Positions 3,590 through 55,508 of a stretch of 64,000 nucleotides of DNA are shown in pieces. A program made the translations under genes and the position numbers. How positions within the stretch are numbered: the first letter of the stretch is position 1; each line of letters starts with the position of its first letter. Source of the DNA: Spizellomyces punctatus DAOM BR117 (taxonomy: Eukaryota); the NCBI GenBank assembly GCA_000182565.2, contig KQ257452.1; one strand, 5' to 3'. Below the pieces are notes generated by a model. That model was not told where the DNA came from. It did no database searches and was given only the letters and a program-made list of their open reading frames with translations.

Positions 3590-3821
3590 GCTTTAAGCAA
3601 CTCGCAAGTGAGACAAGTAGTTTTCTTGTCCAAGAATAATAATAAAAACACTGGAAACCAAACAGCACTTGGAAAAAAAAAAGGTCTGTAGGAAATGCGA
3701 ACCTAGTGTTCAGGAAACTGCTCCGATCGCCCAGTTCCGTTGTTGCCAGGCAATCATCACGTGCCATGTGAGTCCACTGTCATTTCGGCCGAGAGCAAAA
3801 AGTTGAAGAAGGAGGAGGGAG

Positions 3822-3895
3822 TGGTCTCGTCCAGGTTCGAACTGGAGACCTTCAGTGTGTTAGACTGATGTGATAACCAACTACACCACGAGACC
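3822..3895 (-). tRNA. tRNA-Val(AAC)
   Basis: GGTCTCG acceptor stem pairs with CGAGACC; anticodon arm TCAGT-CTAACAC-ACTGA; T loop GTTCGAA; downstream T-run. Confidence 0.97.
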
Positions 3896-14161: not shown

Positions 14162-14812
14162 CTATGGAAGTGTTCCACCCTCTTTGAGGATCACCCGCTT
14201 CCTCCAAAACATGGCCACTTCTTTGACCCGCTTGCATGCTCCGCCAAATTCCTTGTCAGATACCGAGAGATCGAGCGGCAGATTAGTTGAGGTAGATGAG
14301 GACGCATGCCGGTGGGCTGCGTCTGATGCCAGTTGAAGGCAGGTAACAAAGAGGAAGGGAAGAGGACGTCGCCATGCTGACCGAGAGCGGGATCGACGGA
14401 GACGGGAGAGGTAAATGAGGGCGATAACGAGTTGAGGGAGAGTCGCTCGTGTTGAGATGAGAAGATGTTTTATAGCTTTGATTCCAATAGCATCCGCACG
14501 ACTCTTTCGTGAGGCTTCCTTTTCATCTCGTAAATTCCTTGTTGCTGATTTCCCGGAGGCGCCTGCAGCCAGCCGCACCAACATCCATATAAGACCTGCT
14601 AGTTTGGGCAAAGGTGCAGGCTGACCCCGAATTCCAGAATCTAGAGATGGTAGGAAGTTTCGTCGATCTCTTTCGCTACCCCTATTCAGAGCGCTATGGT
14701 GCATGGTTGGAGCTCTGGCGGTGTTGCTAGCGTCGGTCCTGTCCAAACTCAACCGAGCTGTTCCTTCTTGACACTCGGCAATGAGCAAGTCCAGCTTGTG
14801 CGTATTTGACAT
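14162..14812 (-). CDS. Hypothetical protein with partial Pho80/PCL-type cyclin-box resemblance
   Basis: 216-aa single ORF. IKHLLISTRATLPQLVIALIYLSRL...LFVTCLQLAS resembles cyclin-box helices 2-3. Confidence 0.45.
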   Translation of the reverse strand: MSNTHKLDLLIAECQEGTARLSLDRTDASNTARAPTMHHSALNRGSERDRRNFLPSLDSGIRGQPAPLPKLAGLIWMLVRLAAGASGKSATRNLRDEKEASRKSRADAIGIKAIKHLLISTRATLPQLVIALIYLSRLRRSRSRSAWRRPLPFLFVTCLQLASDAAHRHASSSTSTNLPLDLSVSDKEFGGACKRVKEVAMFWRKRVILKEGGTLP

Positions 14813-34971: not shown

Positions 34972-35383
34972 TAGCTGCCGTTCGCTCAACTGGAAATCGA
35001 AACTCTCCCTCACCCCCACCTTTTACTTCATCAAACGTTCCACACGCGTACAATGCCACACCTCCTTCACCCTTTGAAATCTGTTGCTACTTACAGTCTG
35101 GTTTTCGACGAACTCTTTCAACGCGGGTTTCTTTTCTTCGTTAACGTTTTACCTATGAAACTCCAGAATACTGTATAGAGGCGGAACTGGACCGCCACTT
35201 CGTTTTTGTTGTCTTCCTTTTTTTTTCTTCGGAGAACTTGCATAAATGTTGCAAACAAAGATTGTTTTACTCTTAAATATTGTTCGCCTTACTCTGTCAG
35301 TTAGTCGACAGGAAAAGATGCACAAAGTCATTGAGTAAAGTGGCACCAGAGTCACCAAAAAAACCCATCCGACCAATCGTACT

Positions 35384-35455
35384 GGGGCCTACTGGGGTTC
35401 GAACCCAGGACCTCCCGCACCCAAAGCGGGAATCGTACCACTAGACCATAGGCCC
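35384..35455 (-). tRNA. tRNA-Pro(TGG)
   Basis: GGGCCTA/TAGGCCC acceptor stem; CCCGC-TTTGGGT-GCGGG anticodon arm; GTTCGAA T loop; T7 terminator at ~35357-35363. Confidence 0.97.
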
Positions 35456-36398
35456 CGATGAAATCTATTACTCCTGCGTTCTATTATATATTTTACAAAA
35501 TGGCAGAGTGCTTTTCGTTGCCTGGTTGTTTGAACCTTGATCTCTTCCTTCTGCGGAACGCTACTTTGACTTGCACCCCGGGCGAATCTCAACGCTATGT
35601 TATGAAGCATATGGTATTTACGAATATTCGCCTCCGGCCTTCTGGTAGCAATCAACGCGGATCTAAGTTTTGTGATTGAAAGATGTGCAGCCCAGAGCGT
35701 CTTCATTAATTTTAAACGCATACGGCAAATGTCACAAAGATATCGCATGGCTCGGAGTAACTGTTTGCCAATTGGTGCCTTCATTACTATCTACAGATTT
35801 CCCGATGTATTTCAATATTGCTGAAACAAAGAGACGCCTTCAAATCGTATGATCGTTCTGGGACAGTATACTTTTTAAGACCATGTGGATCCGAGGGTGT
35901 TCCCCTTTTTAATGATTCCAACTTAACTACTCGACCAAATCAAAGGGTATTCCCCGTTCCCCGTTCCGATATCATAAATTGTTGCATCCCTCATACATTC
36001 CGATTTCTACCATTATCAGCTTAACGTCCGTATATGGACACTTTAGAAAAGATTGTACTGGTGAAGGAGGACAAGATATAAGATGTTGACCATGGCGTCG
36101 AGGCAACGAAGACCAAATGCATGACGCTTCACCCTAATTGCATCTTCAAAATTAAGGCGCTACCTTGATATCATTACTGTGAGATTAGGTGACATTAGAG
36201 AGTGTTCCCGAACTATGGGCTCCTAACAAGTAGATCACATTTGTTGTGAACTGACCGTTTGGTCAAAGGTCCCGTGTTCGATCCTGCCTGCAAGCATCCA
36301 TTTTCTCCCAGGTGGCACAGCACTTTTACTCGCAGTGGAACAGTTTGAACTTTGGTGTTCGCCTTGAGAGATCCCAAGCGGTCGGCCGGGCGAAGACC

Positions 36399-44862: not shown

Positions 44863-45101
44863 CTTATGCCTATGCTATGAACTTCTTTTGGCCTTGCTCT
44901 CCACAACGGGTGCTCCGTCCGCTTACTCAATCCTTCAAGGTCACGTGAATCAAGTCTCAAGCGACTGGCAAATCGAGCGATACAAACGTTTTCCACCCTA
45001 CCAAGTCATGGGCGCTTCATGCCTCAAGCAGCGCTGACGAATCCGACTGACAGCGTCCATGGGTGAGTTGTAATTCTTTGTGGATGTTACAGACTTGTAG
45101 A

Positions 45102-46788
45102 ATGGAAGCCCCAATCTCCAGGACATGGTCATCAGAGGTTAATCCCATTATTTCTCTTACAGCAGCAAGAGGAGGTGGTGTTAGTCGTGCCAACGACAGT
45201 GCAGAGCTTGGCGATACCGAAGACGATGAAGTCACCCGTTGCGTGTGCGGGCGTACAGGTCAGTTTCCGCAAAGTAATTCGGAGAGAGGATCTGGCAAGG
45301 ACCATTGTTCGCTAACCATTCTGCGCTCCTCAATGGTCACAGAGTCTTTTGGTGTTATGGTTCAATGTGAGGACTGCTTCGTATGGCAGCACTGCGAATG
45401 CATGAACGTAAATCCCAGAAAATTGCCTAAACACTACTACTGTGAACGATGTCAACCAGGGCACCACCAGCATTCCACGTATGTTCCGTGTGAAATTCAT
45501 GTGGCCGAATTATGTCTCCTTACCACTCTGTTTATGCATAGCACAAGACCTACTTCACACAGAACTTCTAGGGATCGACCGGGAAGTGGCAATGGCTCCG
45601 CTGTAGGCGGCAAGCCAACTCCTAAAAAACGCAATACCATGAATAGCTTGGAGGCCGCACAACCTTATACCGAACTACTCATGTTCAAACCCGGTGACGA
45701 ACCTAATCCTGATGACTCCTCTGGAGAAGTGGGCAGCCATGAAAATGACGTCGGTAATGATGCAGTACGGCGACGATCCTCTCACGATGTAGCCAGTGTG
45801 GAGGTCGTGAAGGAATTGTTTTCCGGTGTGTTCAGTTTCGCGTCTCTCCTGCCCTGGACTCACACTCAAACATTTATATCATATGACAGAGAGTACACCG
45901 CTAGGGGACATTGCATTCATCGAAAGAAGAACGATTGAGGTCGAACAAGTTGGTGTAGATCCAGCGGGCATAGATCAAACGCAAGTAAATCTCAAGCGAA
46001 AGCGTGAACAAGTGTCTCATCCCATCCCACATACCCCTGATGAAGAAAAGGACACAAATATCAGGGTAGATGTGGGTGAAATATGCGCCGAATCAAACAA
46101 ATCGACCACTGAGCTGCGAAGCCCGCTCACCAATGGTCGCAACAGCTCTGCTGAAGAGGGATCGGAGCTCGACGCAAAGACCAAGAGAACAAAGGGCGAG
46201 AATGGACGCCGGAATGCCAGCCAGCCTAACACCCGAAATGGCAAGGTGCCCCGACCACAACGCATGCTCCACCGAAATTCAGCGAACAGAGAGGCGCAAC
46301 ATCATTCGCAACCTACACCGGCTTCTTCTGGGCATGCAGCCGAACTGGATGCAGGATTTTCAGTGAAGGTACGAATCCCTCATGCTAAGGCGACGCTGGG
46401 GGAGATGAACAAGCGCGTAAAGCAACTATCGGATTACATCACCCGCCTTCAAGTCTCTATGGCGACGGAACCAAAGTTGGAGCTCTCAGATAGCAGTCCG
46501 GAACTGGCTAATCATCCAGATGCGAAACCTCGGACTCCCCCTGCGCACATAACGTCTCCTGCCGTGGATTTTGCACCTGGACTCGTAAGATCGCCGGAAG
46601 AGGTATCATCTGGCAGCCTACCCAACGGTTCACACACGTCCAACAACGGTTCAGAAAACGTAAAGGACCCGCTGTTGCGAGAGAATGAACTGCCCACAAA
46701 GGAGGAAACAAGTTTGGAGATGCTGGATCGTCTCAATCGTGCTTTAATCAAATTTCAAGAGCGATTTGGTTCTCAAACGAGACGATGA
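45102..46788 (+). CDS. PHD-finger protein, Cti6-like (Rpd3L HDAC-associated)
   Basis: VTRCVCG..MVQCEDCFVWQHCECM..YYCERC; KKRNTMNS; TLGEMNKRVKQLSDYITRLQ; SLEMLDRLNRALIKFQERFG-end. Confidence 0.8.
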
Positions 46789-47165
46789 GCCATTTCGCTA
46801 TGGTTGGATCGGTCGTGGTAGGAAGTCTTTTTCCCTAGCTGGACTGGATGGTTCCTCAGTGCAGTCTGTTCTTATGAGTATCTTGGATTACGACGTATTT
46901 GTGACTTTTGTAAACTTTGATGTGCCCTTTGGCTTCTGTAAATACACTGCTCATGTTGTTCTAGAACAAATCTTTACTAGATTTTCCTTTTTTCAGACCA
47001 GAAGTGTTACTATCTGCCAAAACCTGTCAATTCAGACCCGGAAGAGGCTTAGCTTCTTGTACGTAATCTCCTCCATGGCAACAAAATCACAGTTCCGATT
47101 TCTCCAAAAGCAAGCAGCAAACTTCCCTCACCTTAAGTTCTTTACAAGTTTCAACACATTCCGAC

Positions 47166-47516
47166 ATGCTTGCACCAATTGTCCGCCGAACGGCTGCAAC
47201 AGCCTCCCGAACAGCTACTCCCCTCCTCCGACTTGCGCCCACCGTCCGCCCCACTCTCACATCAATCCCTTCAGCGATCCCGTCCGCCAGTTTTGCAGCA
47301 GCGTCCGTCCCTTCAAGCACCCCAGCAGGGACAGGATCCGGTTTGGTCGCAACCACACAAACCGTAAGTGATCATAAATGATCAGATCTTGTGTACCAAT
47401 GCAGTCCTCACTCTGATGCTCTTACACAGAAAACCGGATCAACACATTCGGTAGGAGCTTTTCGCGCACGGGGAATGCACACTTTCACTTCCTGGCTTGT
47501 AGAAGACGATACGTAA
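47166..47516 (+). CDS. 94-aa presequence-like microprotein ending WLVEDDT-stop (alternative spliced stop at 47854-47856)
   Basis: Exon 47166-47363, canonical 66-nt intron (gtaagt...ctgat...cag), exon 47430-47516; R/S/T/A-rich with no acidic residue until the terminal EDD. Confidence 0.7.
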
Positions 47517-48006
47517 GTGACTGGACAAAATAATGGGGGCACCTCGGTGTTCAAGTACGGTGCACAAAGTGCTTGTAATGACGTGAACAATCCCGTACCG
47601 CGGCCCCCTGGTGTCGTTTCTTCTTTTTTTTATGTATTGCTTTTTCAAGCGCCTAAAGATGCCTCCCTCCCCCTCCTCCATTTCACTTACACTCCGTGCC
47701 ATCCACATAAAAAACGGTTCGTGTTGTATTTTCCCTTTTTTTGTGGTACGGCTCCGTAGAAGGTGGGTGCGGGGGTAATATCCTTGCCACCTTCTCAAGT
47801 CTTTTTTGCATCTCAAGTTTTTTTCTTAACCATTTGTTGTGTTTGGGCTCAGATAAGCTGATTCCGGTTCCCATCAAGGTTGTGATTGGGTTTGGCGCGG
47901 GTGGTCTTTTAGAAAGTGAGAAGACGCACGGACGTTCCGAGGTTTTCAGGTTTCTGAGCATAATATATATTGTCTACTGTGTCCATCATAAACCCTGTAC
48001 AGTATT

Positions 48007-49892
48007 CTAGTTGACTGTAATGGCAGATCCGACGCTTTTGCGAAAAGCGGTTGCGAGCGCCTGAAATCTATCCAATTCCTTCCTTTGTATATCTGCACCA
48101 TCATCAATCTCGCCAATCAAGGTGCTCTCCGAATTGTCACTCGCTGGTTCTACACTATGCGCGACTTTCTCCGCCTGTTCGTCCATGGCGTACGCAAAAA
48201 TGCGCTCTTCTACTGAATACGGATCGATGGTGAAGTTTGCTACTAATATAAACAGAGACTGTTCCAGTCGAATCGATAGGGACCCCATCCACAGCTTCCA
48301 CCTGATCGACAGTCTTTGTGGACGCGATGGCTGATGCATATGAGCAAAACCAGGATAACTGAACGGCGATATCACCTTTTTTGTCTTTGGACATTCTCTA
48401 GGTTCGGCCGACATTGGCTGTCTCCCTTCACGATTGCCCTCTTTGGAAAGTAGCATTCCCAAAAACCTCTCCAGATCACCCTTTGTACACGTCCAATCAC
48501 CTCGAACAAAACTGTGTCCCAGCCCTCGACCAACGTCGTCTCCTTCCAATACAAGTGTCGTGTAGAATGCAGGTGATGTCACATGAACTTTGATCGGAGG
48601 AGACCCGGCACCACCGTGCAAAGTCGTATATGAAGGCCTGCCCTGCTCATATACAATTAGACTGGTGGAATGTCCCTCTGCCTGGATGTGGAAATGATCA
48701 AAGACTGTCCGTCGACAAAACCTAACAGAAATGGTAAGACAACAAATCTAGTATAATGGATCAAGTATGGGCCACTCACGTTTGGAAATTGTTCAATCGC
48801 TTCCATACCATGCCTCGTCCGTCTTTAGGTACCCTCATGGGACTCGGTCTTTGATAGATTTTCATTCGTTTTCGGTACGCAAGGATCCACGCTTGCCGGA
48901 GAATCCTTGGGAAGGTCAAGAATGCGGTCACAGGGTATGTGACAAGAAGATAGGCACATGTACGTGCGTCGAGAGCGTATGCATCACCCCATACTCGTGC
49001 TGTAAACCATAATGGCTTGGAAAGTCCTGCCAAAGATGCATCCGTGTAATTTTTGATGTTGAGTAGGACGTCGAGTGTCTTGTCTGGGTGCTTGAAATGG
49101 GCTTCATAATTGCCACTACGGTTATTAAAAGGAGAGACATGAAAGGATCGATCTATCGAGTGACTATAATCATATCTGCCAATGGACAGAGAATATGAGC
49201 ACATTTGATAATTAGAGGTTACGGCACCTCTTCCTTACCCAGGGGCACTCTTCACACGGTTCTTTTCACAGCAAACGTACACATGGCGTTCACCAAACGT
49301 ATTGTTCACCTCCAAGATGACTGCGTGGACATTTGACGGGGTGGTGGAGGAATAACAAAAGTAAACGCTAAGGGGATTAAATGCATAGCCCAACACACGC
49401 GGTGTTGTTACTAGTTCGATAGACCCGATATCCGAGGTTGAGATTCCCTATCAAAGGAGTTACTAAAATACTCATAAACATACTTGAGCCTTTTCTTTGA
49501 CTCACCATACTTGCCAATAACTCAAGCACACGCTGTTTCAAACCTAACCCAAACCCTTGCTTCCTGCCATCCCCACCGCCTAGATAGTCGCCTTCTCGCA
49601 CCGCAAAAAGCCCTCTCTCCCACCCAGCTAACCACCAGGGTACATTGAAATCCTCACCCAATTTGACTCGAAAGTAGAAAAGTGGGTACTTGAATGCATG
49701 CCGAACGGGATGGTATCGGACGTGATGGGTTTGTACAATGTGGATCTTGTGTTGTATGCTGGTGATAGTGTTTCTGCACAGTGGCGTTAGACGTATGTAT
49801 TGGACAGAAGCACCAATGAGAGCAAGAAGAAGAAGAATGAGCAACGAGATCTCTAGTGAGAATGACATTGTCATTGGGGGAGGATTCTTCAT
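48007..49892 (-). CDS. DUF1365-family protein with N-terminal TM segment
   Basis: HVRYHPVRHAFKYPLFYF; TTPRVLGYAFNPLSVYFCY; ILEVNNTFGERHVY; RSFHVSPFN; TFPRILRQAWIL. Confidence 0.88.
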
Positions 49893-54122: not shown

Positions 54123-55508
54123 ATGGCAAAGCAGCATCAAGTCGACCTCTCACCCGACGGCGCTGTGCGTGTGTTCGTCCGTTGGCGGCCACTCACCAAG
54201 ATCGAGATCAGCCAGAATAGCGCAGCGGTCTCATACGAAGTCAAGGAGGAGGACGAAGCCAGTTATGTGGTGGATGTGACTGGCAAGGTGAACAACCGAT
54301 TGCGAAAGTGGAGCGGCGGGGGCTTCGCCGGAGTGCTCAGGGACAAGGACGACAACGCGTCCACGTTCGCAGCTACCGTCGAGCCCATTCTTTTGCGTGT
54401 TATGGAGGGTGGTACGGGGAGTTGTTTCTGCTACGGCCATACAGGCTCTGGAAAGACGCATACAGTCTTAGGATATGGCGAGGAGTTTGGTCTGTACTAC
54501 AGAGCCGCCACCAGGGTGGCCGAAATGCTCAAGGCTATCAATCACAAGGAAGGGACCGACTTGGCCATTAACGTACGCTTTTCGGAGCTCTACAACGGGA
54601 AAGTTTATGATCTCTTGAAACAACGAGCTGAATGTCACGTAAGGCAGGATGCTGATGGGAAGGTACACATTCGTTCGCAAACGGAAAAGTTTGCGGACGG
54701 ACGTGTCCGCGTTCGACCGCTTCATGCTGTTACCTGCAGAGATGCTGAAGAGGTTGCCAAGGCCGTCGTCATGGGCACCGGTCTGCGCACCGCTGGGGTC
54801 TCCACGCTCCACGACCAAAGCTCTCGTTCGCATGCCATTATCGAGATGGAAATTGTAACCAAAGAAGTCATGGAAGCGCGTGAGGCTGTGCTTCAAGCCG
54901 AATCAGAGTTAGTGCCCGTAGGAAAGCGGTGTACAGACATAAAGATTGAGGAACAATCCAAAATGTACGTAAATGTGGACGGCGAATGGAAAATCACAGG
55001 AGTGCAAATTGACCAGGCGCGGATCGATGCGGCAGAGGCGGAATTGAAGGTATTTGAGGAGCGTGTTAAGGCTGCGGAGGAACGCGCGGAAAGAGCTAGT
55101 AGAAATGGCGGTCATCCGTGTGTTGGGGGTACGCTCGTGTTTGTGGACCTCGCCGGTGCTGAGCACGGTGCAGACGAGGGAAAAATGCCGGGGAGGAGTC
55201 AAACTGCCCAAGAGCGTCGCGAGGGAAGGCAGATCAATACTGAGCTCCTTGCATTGAAGGAAGTAATTCGTGCTCGGGCGCAATCCCTATGCAATGGAGC
55301 ACAGGGACAACGCATACCCTTTCGGACTTGTTCCCTGACAATGGTCTTGCGACGCTACTTGATAGCAAACGACTGTGCCTGTGTCATGATCGCAAATACA
55401 TCTCCATCTGTCGAACACACGGTAAAAACAATAAATACGCTACAGTATGCGGCGCTGGTGACTGCGAGTAGCAGTAAAGCGAAGAAGAATAACGTTACCT
55501 CAGGGTGA
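54123..55508 (+). CDS. Divergent kinesin motor-domain protein, intronless
   Basis: VRVFVRWRP; P-loop YGHTGSGKTHT; ELYNGKVYDLL; switch I SSRSHA; switch II VDLAGAE; INTELLALKEVI; IPFRTCSLT; TINTLQYA. Confidence 0.93.
   Translation: MAKQHQVDLSPDGAVRVFVRWRPLTKIEISQNSAAVSYEVKEEDEASYVVDVTGKVNNRLRKWSGGGFAGVLRDKDDNASTFAATVEPILLRVMEGGTGSCFCYGHTGSGKTHTVLGYGEEFGLYYRAATRVAEMLKAINHKEGTDLAINVRFSELYNGKVYDLLKQRAECHVRQDADGKVHIRSQTEKFADGRVRVRPLHAVTCRDAEEVAKAVVMGTGLRTAGVSTLHDQSSRSHAIIEMEIVTKEVMEAREAVLQAESELVPVGKRCTDIKIEEQSKMYVNVDGEWKITGVQIDQARIDAAEAELKVFEERVKAAEERAERASRNGGHPCVGGTLVFVDLAGAEHGADEGKMPGRSQTAQERREGRQINTELLALKEVIRARAQSLCNGAQGQRIPFRTCSLTMVLRRYLIANDCACVMIANTSPSVEHTVKTINTLQYAALVTASSSKAKKNNVTSG

Follow-up and report, generated by a model that had tools for sequence, protein, structure and literature searches.

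The window analysed here, a stretch of 64,000 nucleotides from contig KQ257452.1 of Spizellomyces punctatus DAOM BR117 (assembly GCA_000182565.2), is intron-rich fungal DNA. Its plus strand carries a gene for a microprotein, with a start codon at 47166 and a poly(A) site at 47992, flanked by a PHD-finger gene on the same strand and a convergent gene on the minus strand. The PHD-finger gene (45084–46990) lies directly upstream, and its read coverage stops about 200 nt before the microprotein ATG. The convergent gene corresponds to an open frame at 48007–48747 without Pfam family; its reads extend into the bin with the microprotein poly(A) site (47901–48300), so that the 3' ends probably overlap. 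Further features are a DUF1365 gene of at least two exons (48776–49892, minus strand), two minus-strand tRNA genes, tRNA-Val(AAC) at 3821–3895 and tRNA-Pro(TGG) at 35383–35456, and, at 1055–1410, a run of about 310 N that marks a gap in the assembly, after which come a small number of degenerate GGGTT-type repeats, possibly telomere-like. One of ten open reading frames looked up (14165–14812) was identical to a database protein that shares its 90% cluster with a protein of Spizellomyces sp. 'palustris'. The microprotein gene is real, and since its product is absent from the protein collection that contains this other gene of the window, it is probably unannotated.

Exons, introns and splice forms

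The preliminary description had presented 47166–47516 as one open frame encoding a microprotein with an EDDT-stop tail. The N- and C-terminal residues that it quoted were found where it placed them, but the single frame did not survive: an in-frame TGA (47379–47381) interrupts it and lies inside a spliced intron. The RNA evidence comes from one run (X5; raw reads, of which about 6% were read, 3'-biased) compared with the region 45401–48400. Three other runs of unknown kind gave unspliced contigs and are uninformative on splicing. Plus-strand RNA covers the gene. Coding exon 1 (47166–47363) comprises 66 codons and has a plus-strand depth of 13–28. Intron 1 (47364–47429) is a GT..AG intron of 66 nt in phase 0, skipped by 14 reads with seven different starts at the joint 47363>47430. 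Coding exon 2 (47430–47512; depth about 49 in bin 47401–47500) adds 27 codons and 2 nt, including a candidate MPP/Icp55 site after Arg80 and the tail WLVEDDT. The last exon (47853–47992) follows tandem acceptors at 47852 and 47857, contains the stops TAA (47854–47856) and TGA (47859–47861) and a 3' UTR without AUG, and ends in a loose poly(A) end seen in 30 reads. A perfect 10-nt inverted repeat (47335–47344 and 47431–47440) is present in the exons flanking intron 1 and could bring the splice sites together.

The intron-2 region (47513–47852) is alternatively spliced. The donor at 47513, in phase 2, has sequence in common with the genomic TAA (47514–47516), and more donors are used at 47717 and 47763. 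Joints leaving from 47512, 47716 and 47762 were each found in three reads, while a depth of 13–20 is left over within the region. The joint 47512>47858 was detected in three reads, and donor 47717 was spliced to both acceptors (three reads each). A microexon of only 3 nt (AAG, 47760–47762) was recognized from three reads that join 47512 to 47851 through one additional letter and so carry AAG between exon 2 and 47853; AAG is also the consensus of the 18 loose ends at 47512 (agreement 0.64). Use of its donor was seen separately in the joint 47762>47853, in three other reads. Upstream of the microexon lie a pyrimidine tract and TAG, and downstream of it GTGGGT. The direct joint 47512>47853, which would also encode EDDT-stop, was absent among the listed joints. 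These read counts give no isoform shares, and the loose ends considered are those listed, out of a set larger by 122.

Inclusion of the microexon adds a C-terminal Arg and yields EDDTR-stop; use of the acceptor before 47858, or retention, yields EDDT-stop. Every resolved splice form thus keeps the acidic EDDT at most one residue from the C-terminus. The acidic tail next to the stop therefore stood as described, with the correction that the TAA at 47514–47516 falls within the second intron, for which splicing from the donor at 47513 was observed, and that the exact ending depends on the isoform. Splicing into a longer downstream coding sequence, named beforehand as an outcome that would speak against the microprotein, was not found: the resolved forms add zero or one residue and the RNA is polyadenylated at 47992. 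Each of the tandem acceptors places a stop straight after the Thr codon, for which the chance is 0.044 each and, as a product, about 0.002 together. In the forms spliced from 47717 or 47763 that retain the upstream part, the stop lies 200–246 nt before the junction, and these forms may for this reason undergo nonsense-mediated decay.

The microexon is predicted to be part of an RNA hairpin at 47758–47795 (-19.9 kcal/mol). Microexon, acceptor AG and donor GU are all located in the 5' arm, and nine perfect pairs are followed by an inner stem. An equally good hairpin was obtained in 2 of 1000 shuffles and the 9-nt complement in 13 of 5000; in an untuned scan of the 31,279 42-mers of the plus strand it was the fifth-best non-overlapping peak. 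Pairing was predicted at 0.76–1.0 in local folds and at 0.44–0.5 in the fold of the whole pre-mRNA, and the stability of the entire intron does not stand out from that of shuffled sequences (z -1.28). A role as RNA thermometer was rejected, with a predicted pairing of at least 0.83 up to 60 °C. Rfam models gave no match at E<=5 in 46900–48100, that is, no known structured RNA or riboswitch in this interval. The most stable 42-nt hairpin of the plus strand (-23.8 kcal/mol) was located elsewhere, at 54665–54706 within a kinesin open frame.

A second candidate element, at 47683–47690, is an 8-nt perfect complement of the donors of both introns, a weak case for donor masking: it occurred in 30 of 5000 shuffles, and 7 of 189 control donor-like sites have an equally long complement. 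Both introns open in the same 9-nt context (47363–47371 and 47512–47520), so that this complement could pair with either donor. Very small microexons have been described in PMC8831610, and as far as the available parts of that paper go the chytrid one resembles them as a tiny in-frame exon of the type missed by annotation. Unlike them, it sits at the last codon, alters the C-terminal residue only and would, by prediction, be hidden in a hairpin together with its two splice sites.

Reading frame and properties of the encoded protein

The coding potential of the region was assessed from its composition. Triplet periodicity is strong (chi2 36.2), being matched by none of 2000 shuffles and by 5 of 1275 windows. 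The codon-usage score is +8.3 bits for the frame starting at 47166 and -8.5 bits for a rival open sense frame; this score is weak evidence, as a stop-containing frame (+14.9) and an open antisense frame (+15.2) are both higher. The rival sense frame of 128 codons starts from the ATG at 47075, the sole upstream ATG from 46990 on, which is out of frame with the microprotein and lies in a bin with zero plus-strand depth. Like the microprotein frame, it is open across intron 1 and acid-poor. Translation of this frame instead, or an RNA that is non-coding, or an open reading frame that is young or functionless, would agree with the missing homologues (see below), with the absence of the product from the collection holding another gene of the window and with the messy splicing at the 3' end; it would also be compatible with a library that is 3'-biased and a 5' end of the mRNA that is unmapped. 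Against these readings stand the strong periodicity of the region and the fact that both acceptors yield stops right after the tail. The rival frame in particular has an odd composition (23 Cys, His, Asn or Trp in 93 residues; real ORFs have 9.4%) and scores negatively on codon usage; its ATG is outside the region with coverage, and with the 47858 acceptor the frame meets no stop before the poly(A) site, giving a non-stop isoform. Taken together they are given only a small chance.

The spliced product has 94 residues, or 95 with the terminal Arg, and its first acidic residue is residue 91. The claim that the first 90 residues are acid-free was thus confirmed for the spliced protein, in which they comprise eight basic and zero acidic residues; Ser, Thr, Ala and Pro make up 55% of the 94-residue protein, which contains a single Lys. 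With 11.9% Asp and Glu in the long open reading frames of the window, 90 residues without acid have by simple arithmetic a probability near 1e-5. Acid-free runs are nevertheless not unique here: among 2470 ATGs, the one at 47166 has the third-longest run when left unspliced (68 residues), and a run of 67 occurs in the overlapping rival frame.

Residues 1–28 contain five Arg and show the highest hydrophobic moments (up to 0.67). According to crude measures of composition and moment, the N-terminus is Arg-rich, acid-free and amphipathic as expected for a presequence, the traits of which are an excess of Arg and missing acids, although presequence-like peptides readily arise by chance (both points from the part of PMC4585086 at hand). 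A hydrophobic segment resembling a signal peptide is absent from the N-terminus, the best 11-mer (mean hydropathy 1.34) being at 38–48. The remainder of exon 1 encodes a linker of Ser, Thr, Ala, Pro and Gly (residues 29–66) without basic residue and with moments of 0.0–0.37, and residues 67–80 contribute one Lys and two Arg. To call the protein essentially all presequence was an overstatement in view of this uncharged linker, while the presequence-like character holds for residues 1–28. Arg80 is in a possible R-2/R-3 cleavage context (rule as given in the section of PMC7723863 available); it was chosen by eye and is far downstream, and Arg7 and Arg8 fit too. No folded domain had been expected, and indeed exon 1, exon 2 and the exon-2 frame were without Pfam family at E<=1. 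As judged from sequence, a presequence-like microprotein with an acidic tail beside the stop is supported.

Searches for homologues were without result. The exon-1 frame gave five candidates of near length with none at E<=1, and no usable match in the Atlas; the exon-2 frame gave one candidate of longer length with none at E<=10. Among 1.84 billion representatives, phmmer returned two matches, neither of them genuine: one was rejected as a repeat protein, the other as a JGI hypothetical protein from a single contig whose alignment passes through intron-derived letters. Pattern matches in metagenome contigs (601) and in viral contigs (244) included no confirmed case. These blanks are a gap and do not imply orphan status, since the collections searched contain few sequences from chytrids and lack eukaryotic genomes, and the queries were other than the spliced protein.

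Comparison with plant NFD6/NOXY2 proteins

The preliminary description had suggested a resemblance to small plant proteins of the NFD6/NOXY2 type. NOXY2 is At5g11630 (PMC11979336, seen in part), and the noxy2 mutant shows mitochondrial aggregates and antimycin resistance (PMC8358658, likewise in part). For comparison, a preset motif retrieved 67 plant loci (23 distinct), one of which is At4g39300, in a cluster named NFD6-like. A profile search returned 1888 proteins; in the best 120 of these 1888, where the name NUCLEAR FUSION DEFECTIVE 6 occurs, the matches are plant wherever named, and the three Atlas clusters listed are Streptophyta. The core profile was built from land plants only and seeded with the preset motif. 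A full-length HMM was made from the 80 of the 120 proteins with a Met start and a length of 85–105 aa, and a tail HMM from 71 of these 80.

The layout of the two kinds of protein is alike. Both are about 95 aa long with a presequence-like, acid-poor first exon (Arg/Ser/Ala-rich in plants, where the median first acidic residue is at 52), both have a Trp and then an acidic residue near the end, and in both, alternative splicing close to the stop determines the last residues, so that tails are acidic or end in Arg. In 22 of the 23 distinct plant loci the donor of the last coding intron is located just after W-x-x-[ED], the remaining one being a spliced transcript. Endings in TR or PR were counted in 22 of the 80 full-length plant proteins, and DD followed by a small or aliphatic residue in 17. 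For 4 of the 23 distinct loci, the predicted acceptors yield tails of both types, in agreement with the annotated isoform ends. Two candidate last exons each, one with a basic and one with an acidic DD tail, were noted for the NFD6-like loci L003, L019, L022 and L039, and no report on an Arg/acidic tail switch of plant NFD6-like loci was found in the literature searched.

In contrast, the sequence tests failed. A conserved core, roughly 40 residues long and containing P-x-H-[ST]-A-x-A-S-A, characterizes NFD6/NOXY2 proteins and is absent from the chytrid protein. The core HMM scored it at -6.7 bits, a value equalled or exceeded by 1863 of 2000 shuffles, whereas held-out members reached 47.8–92 bits (leave-one-out). 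With the full-length HMM it obtained 2.1 bits, and 956 of 2000 shuffles scored as high, arguing against similarity over the whole length; hhalign against the NFD6/NOXY2-like family gave 0.5%. On these three profile tests membership was rejected, and of the earlier resemblance only the layout remains. The tail HMM gave 0.8 bits, and out of 2000 shuffles 96 scored as high as the Arg form and 125 as high as the Thr form, a profile likeness that is suggestive at most.

Differences in detail were also evident. The chytrid protein is without acid before residue 91, while plants have a median of three acidic residues before the last ten; the distance from Trp to the end is 7–8 residues compared with mostly 10 in plants; the intron is in phase 2 inside a Thr codon instead of phase 1 after a Gly codon; and a 3-nt microexon takes the place of alternative last exons. 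No convincing 3-nt microexon was detected in the 18 plant loci scanned, and six Arabidopsis locus identifiers did not occur in six supplementary files, possibly an incomplete set, of PMC8831610.

It is possible, if unlikely, that the gene is nonetheless a true and highly diverged fungal member of the family, in which the core helix was lost or remodelled and only presequence, W-x-x-E tail and splicing at the end persisted. The size, the presequence-like first exon, the position of the last coding intron and the TR/PR or DD endings of the plant tails, along with the score of the Arg form in the tail HMM, would fit such an origin, to which the three failed profile tests, the different intron phase and the confinement of named matches among the best 120 to plants and of the listed Atlas clusters to Streptophyta are opposed. 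In the literature consulted, including the accessible parts of PMC12903786, PMC11979336 and PMC13351739, neither fungal members of NFD6/NOXY2 nor a molecular mechanism was found. What can be said is that the chytrid gene is laid out like NFD6/NOXY2 although membership failed, and that its splice switch at the last codon is unusual.

Possible roles of the C-terminal tail

The tail had been likened at first to SecM/MifM-type arrest peptides. According to this view (nascent-chain arrest of the SecM, MifM or fungal AAP type), a ribosome stalled at the stop codon would resume only once import had drawn out the chain. A targeting signal, a spacer able to span the exit tunnel and a motif at the stop are consistent with it, and some known arrest peptides act at termination (PMC11665472, in the portion available). 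The same portion covers SecM, MifM, Neurospora AAP, XBP1u and the AdoMetDC uORF, with which the chytrid protein, known here from sequence and RNA reads, has in common a targeting-like N-terminus and a short motif ending a small ORF; its mRNA differs by having no downstream gene, its last residue is variable and no motif is shared, the termination-arrest motifs given there being PP-stop and GIG-stop and not acidic. The mRNA ends at 47992 and no AUG is present in 47853–47992. As there is no downstream ORF to control, and as isoforms differ in their last residue and stop codon and thus in the position of the tail relative to the stop, arrest is very improbable.

The second early idea, a C-terminal degron that senses import, would gain a handle in the switchable terminal Arg. 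Arg-ending degrons are read by FEM1 proteins. The microprotein would normally be imported and destroyed; on import failure it would stay in the cytosol, where its free C-terminus, with or without Arg, would be read by a ubiquitin ligase or a signalling protein. Such an import-stress sensor or decoy would suit a protein with almost no mature domain in which the sole coding effect of the microexon is a terminal Arg. In human cells C-degron pathways clear mitochondrial proteins left in the cytosol (PMC8013793), and presequences serve as degrons for SIFI (PMC12286842), both sources being available in part. With these C-degrons and with the import sensor DELE1 (PMC8986780, also in part) the chytrid protein shares the combination of a presequence with a free C-terminus that may carry a recognition motif; it is short, whereas DELE1 is large, and the C-degron cases in the available text are human, Gly-ending, unlike the chytrid tail, and on folded proteins. 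The single Lys of the protein also argues against this role, and a sensor or decoy is considered improbable.

The explanation favoured, tentatively and as short of probable, is that this nuclear gene is translated into a microprotein targeted to mitochondria, in which the short C-terminal peptide (the last dozen residues) does the work and is tuned by splicing. A polyadenylated, spliced mRNA and a variable tail, including the terminal Arg from a 3-nt microexon, were observed, for the splice forms in one genome and one RNA run with three reads per intron-2 joint. Beyond this we infer translation, import, cleavage, a partner and control of the microexon by the hairpin. Residues 1–28 would direct the chain to the TOM/TIM23 route, and the acid-free linker would follow the presequence in. 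MPP and then Icp55 would cut after the candidate Arg80, releasing a peptide of 12–14 residues that ends in WLVEDDT or WLVEDDTR. With its free end, this peptide may bind a mitochondrial partner as a short ligand and act in morphology or stress signalling, both of which are disturbed in noxy2 mutant plants. The hairpin over both splice sites would gate inclusion of the microexon and thus switch the terminal residue, while removal by nonsense-mediated decay of the forms retaining the 5' part of intron 2 would let splicing tune the amount. A diverged NFD6 origin concerns ancestry and is compatible with this released-peptide explanation.

A broader and decidedly unlikely extension is that plants and zoosporic fungi have an overlooked class of mitochondrial microproteins that consist of little besides a presequence and a C-terminal signal peptide, with splicing at the stop codon deciding whether the last residue is Arg. 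The chytrid switch would be the hairpin-gated 3-nt microexon, and the peptide would report import status or dock on a matrix partner. Plant NFD6/NOXY2 mutants have fertility and mitochondrial phenotypes, for which a molecular mechanism was not found in the literature searched, as far as its available parts go. If such a class exists, it would provide a testable mechanism for NFD6/NOXY2 in the tail rather than in the core. With a fungal gene that has the tail switch and is without the core, it becomes directly testable whether the free C-terminus does the work. If translated, the gene would encode a mitochondrial microprotein that had been missed, with a splicing switch close to the minimum in size, in which three bases change one terminal residue.
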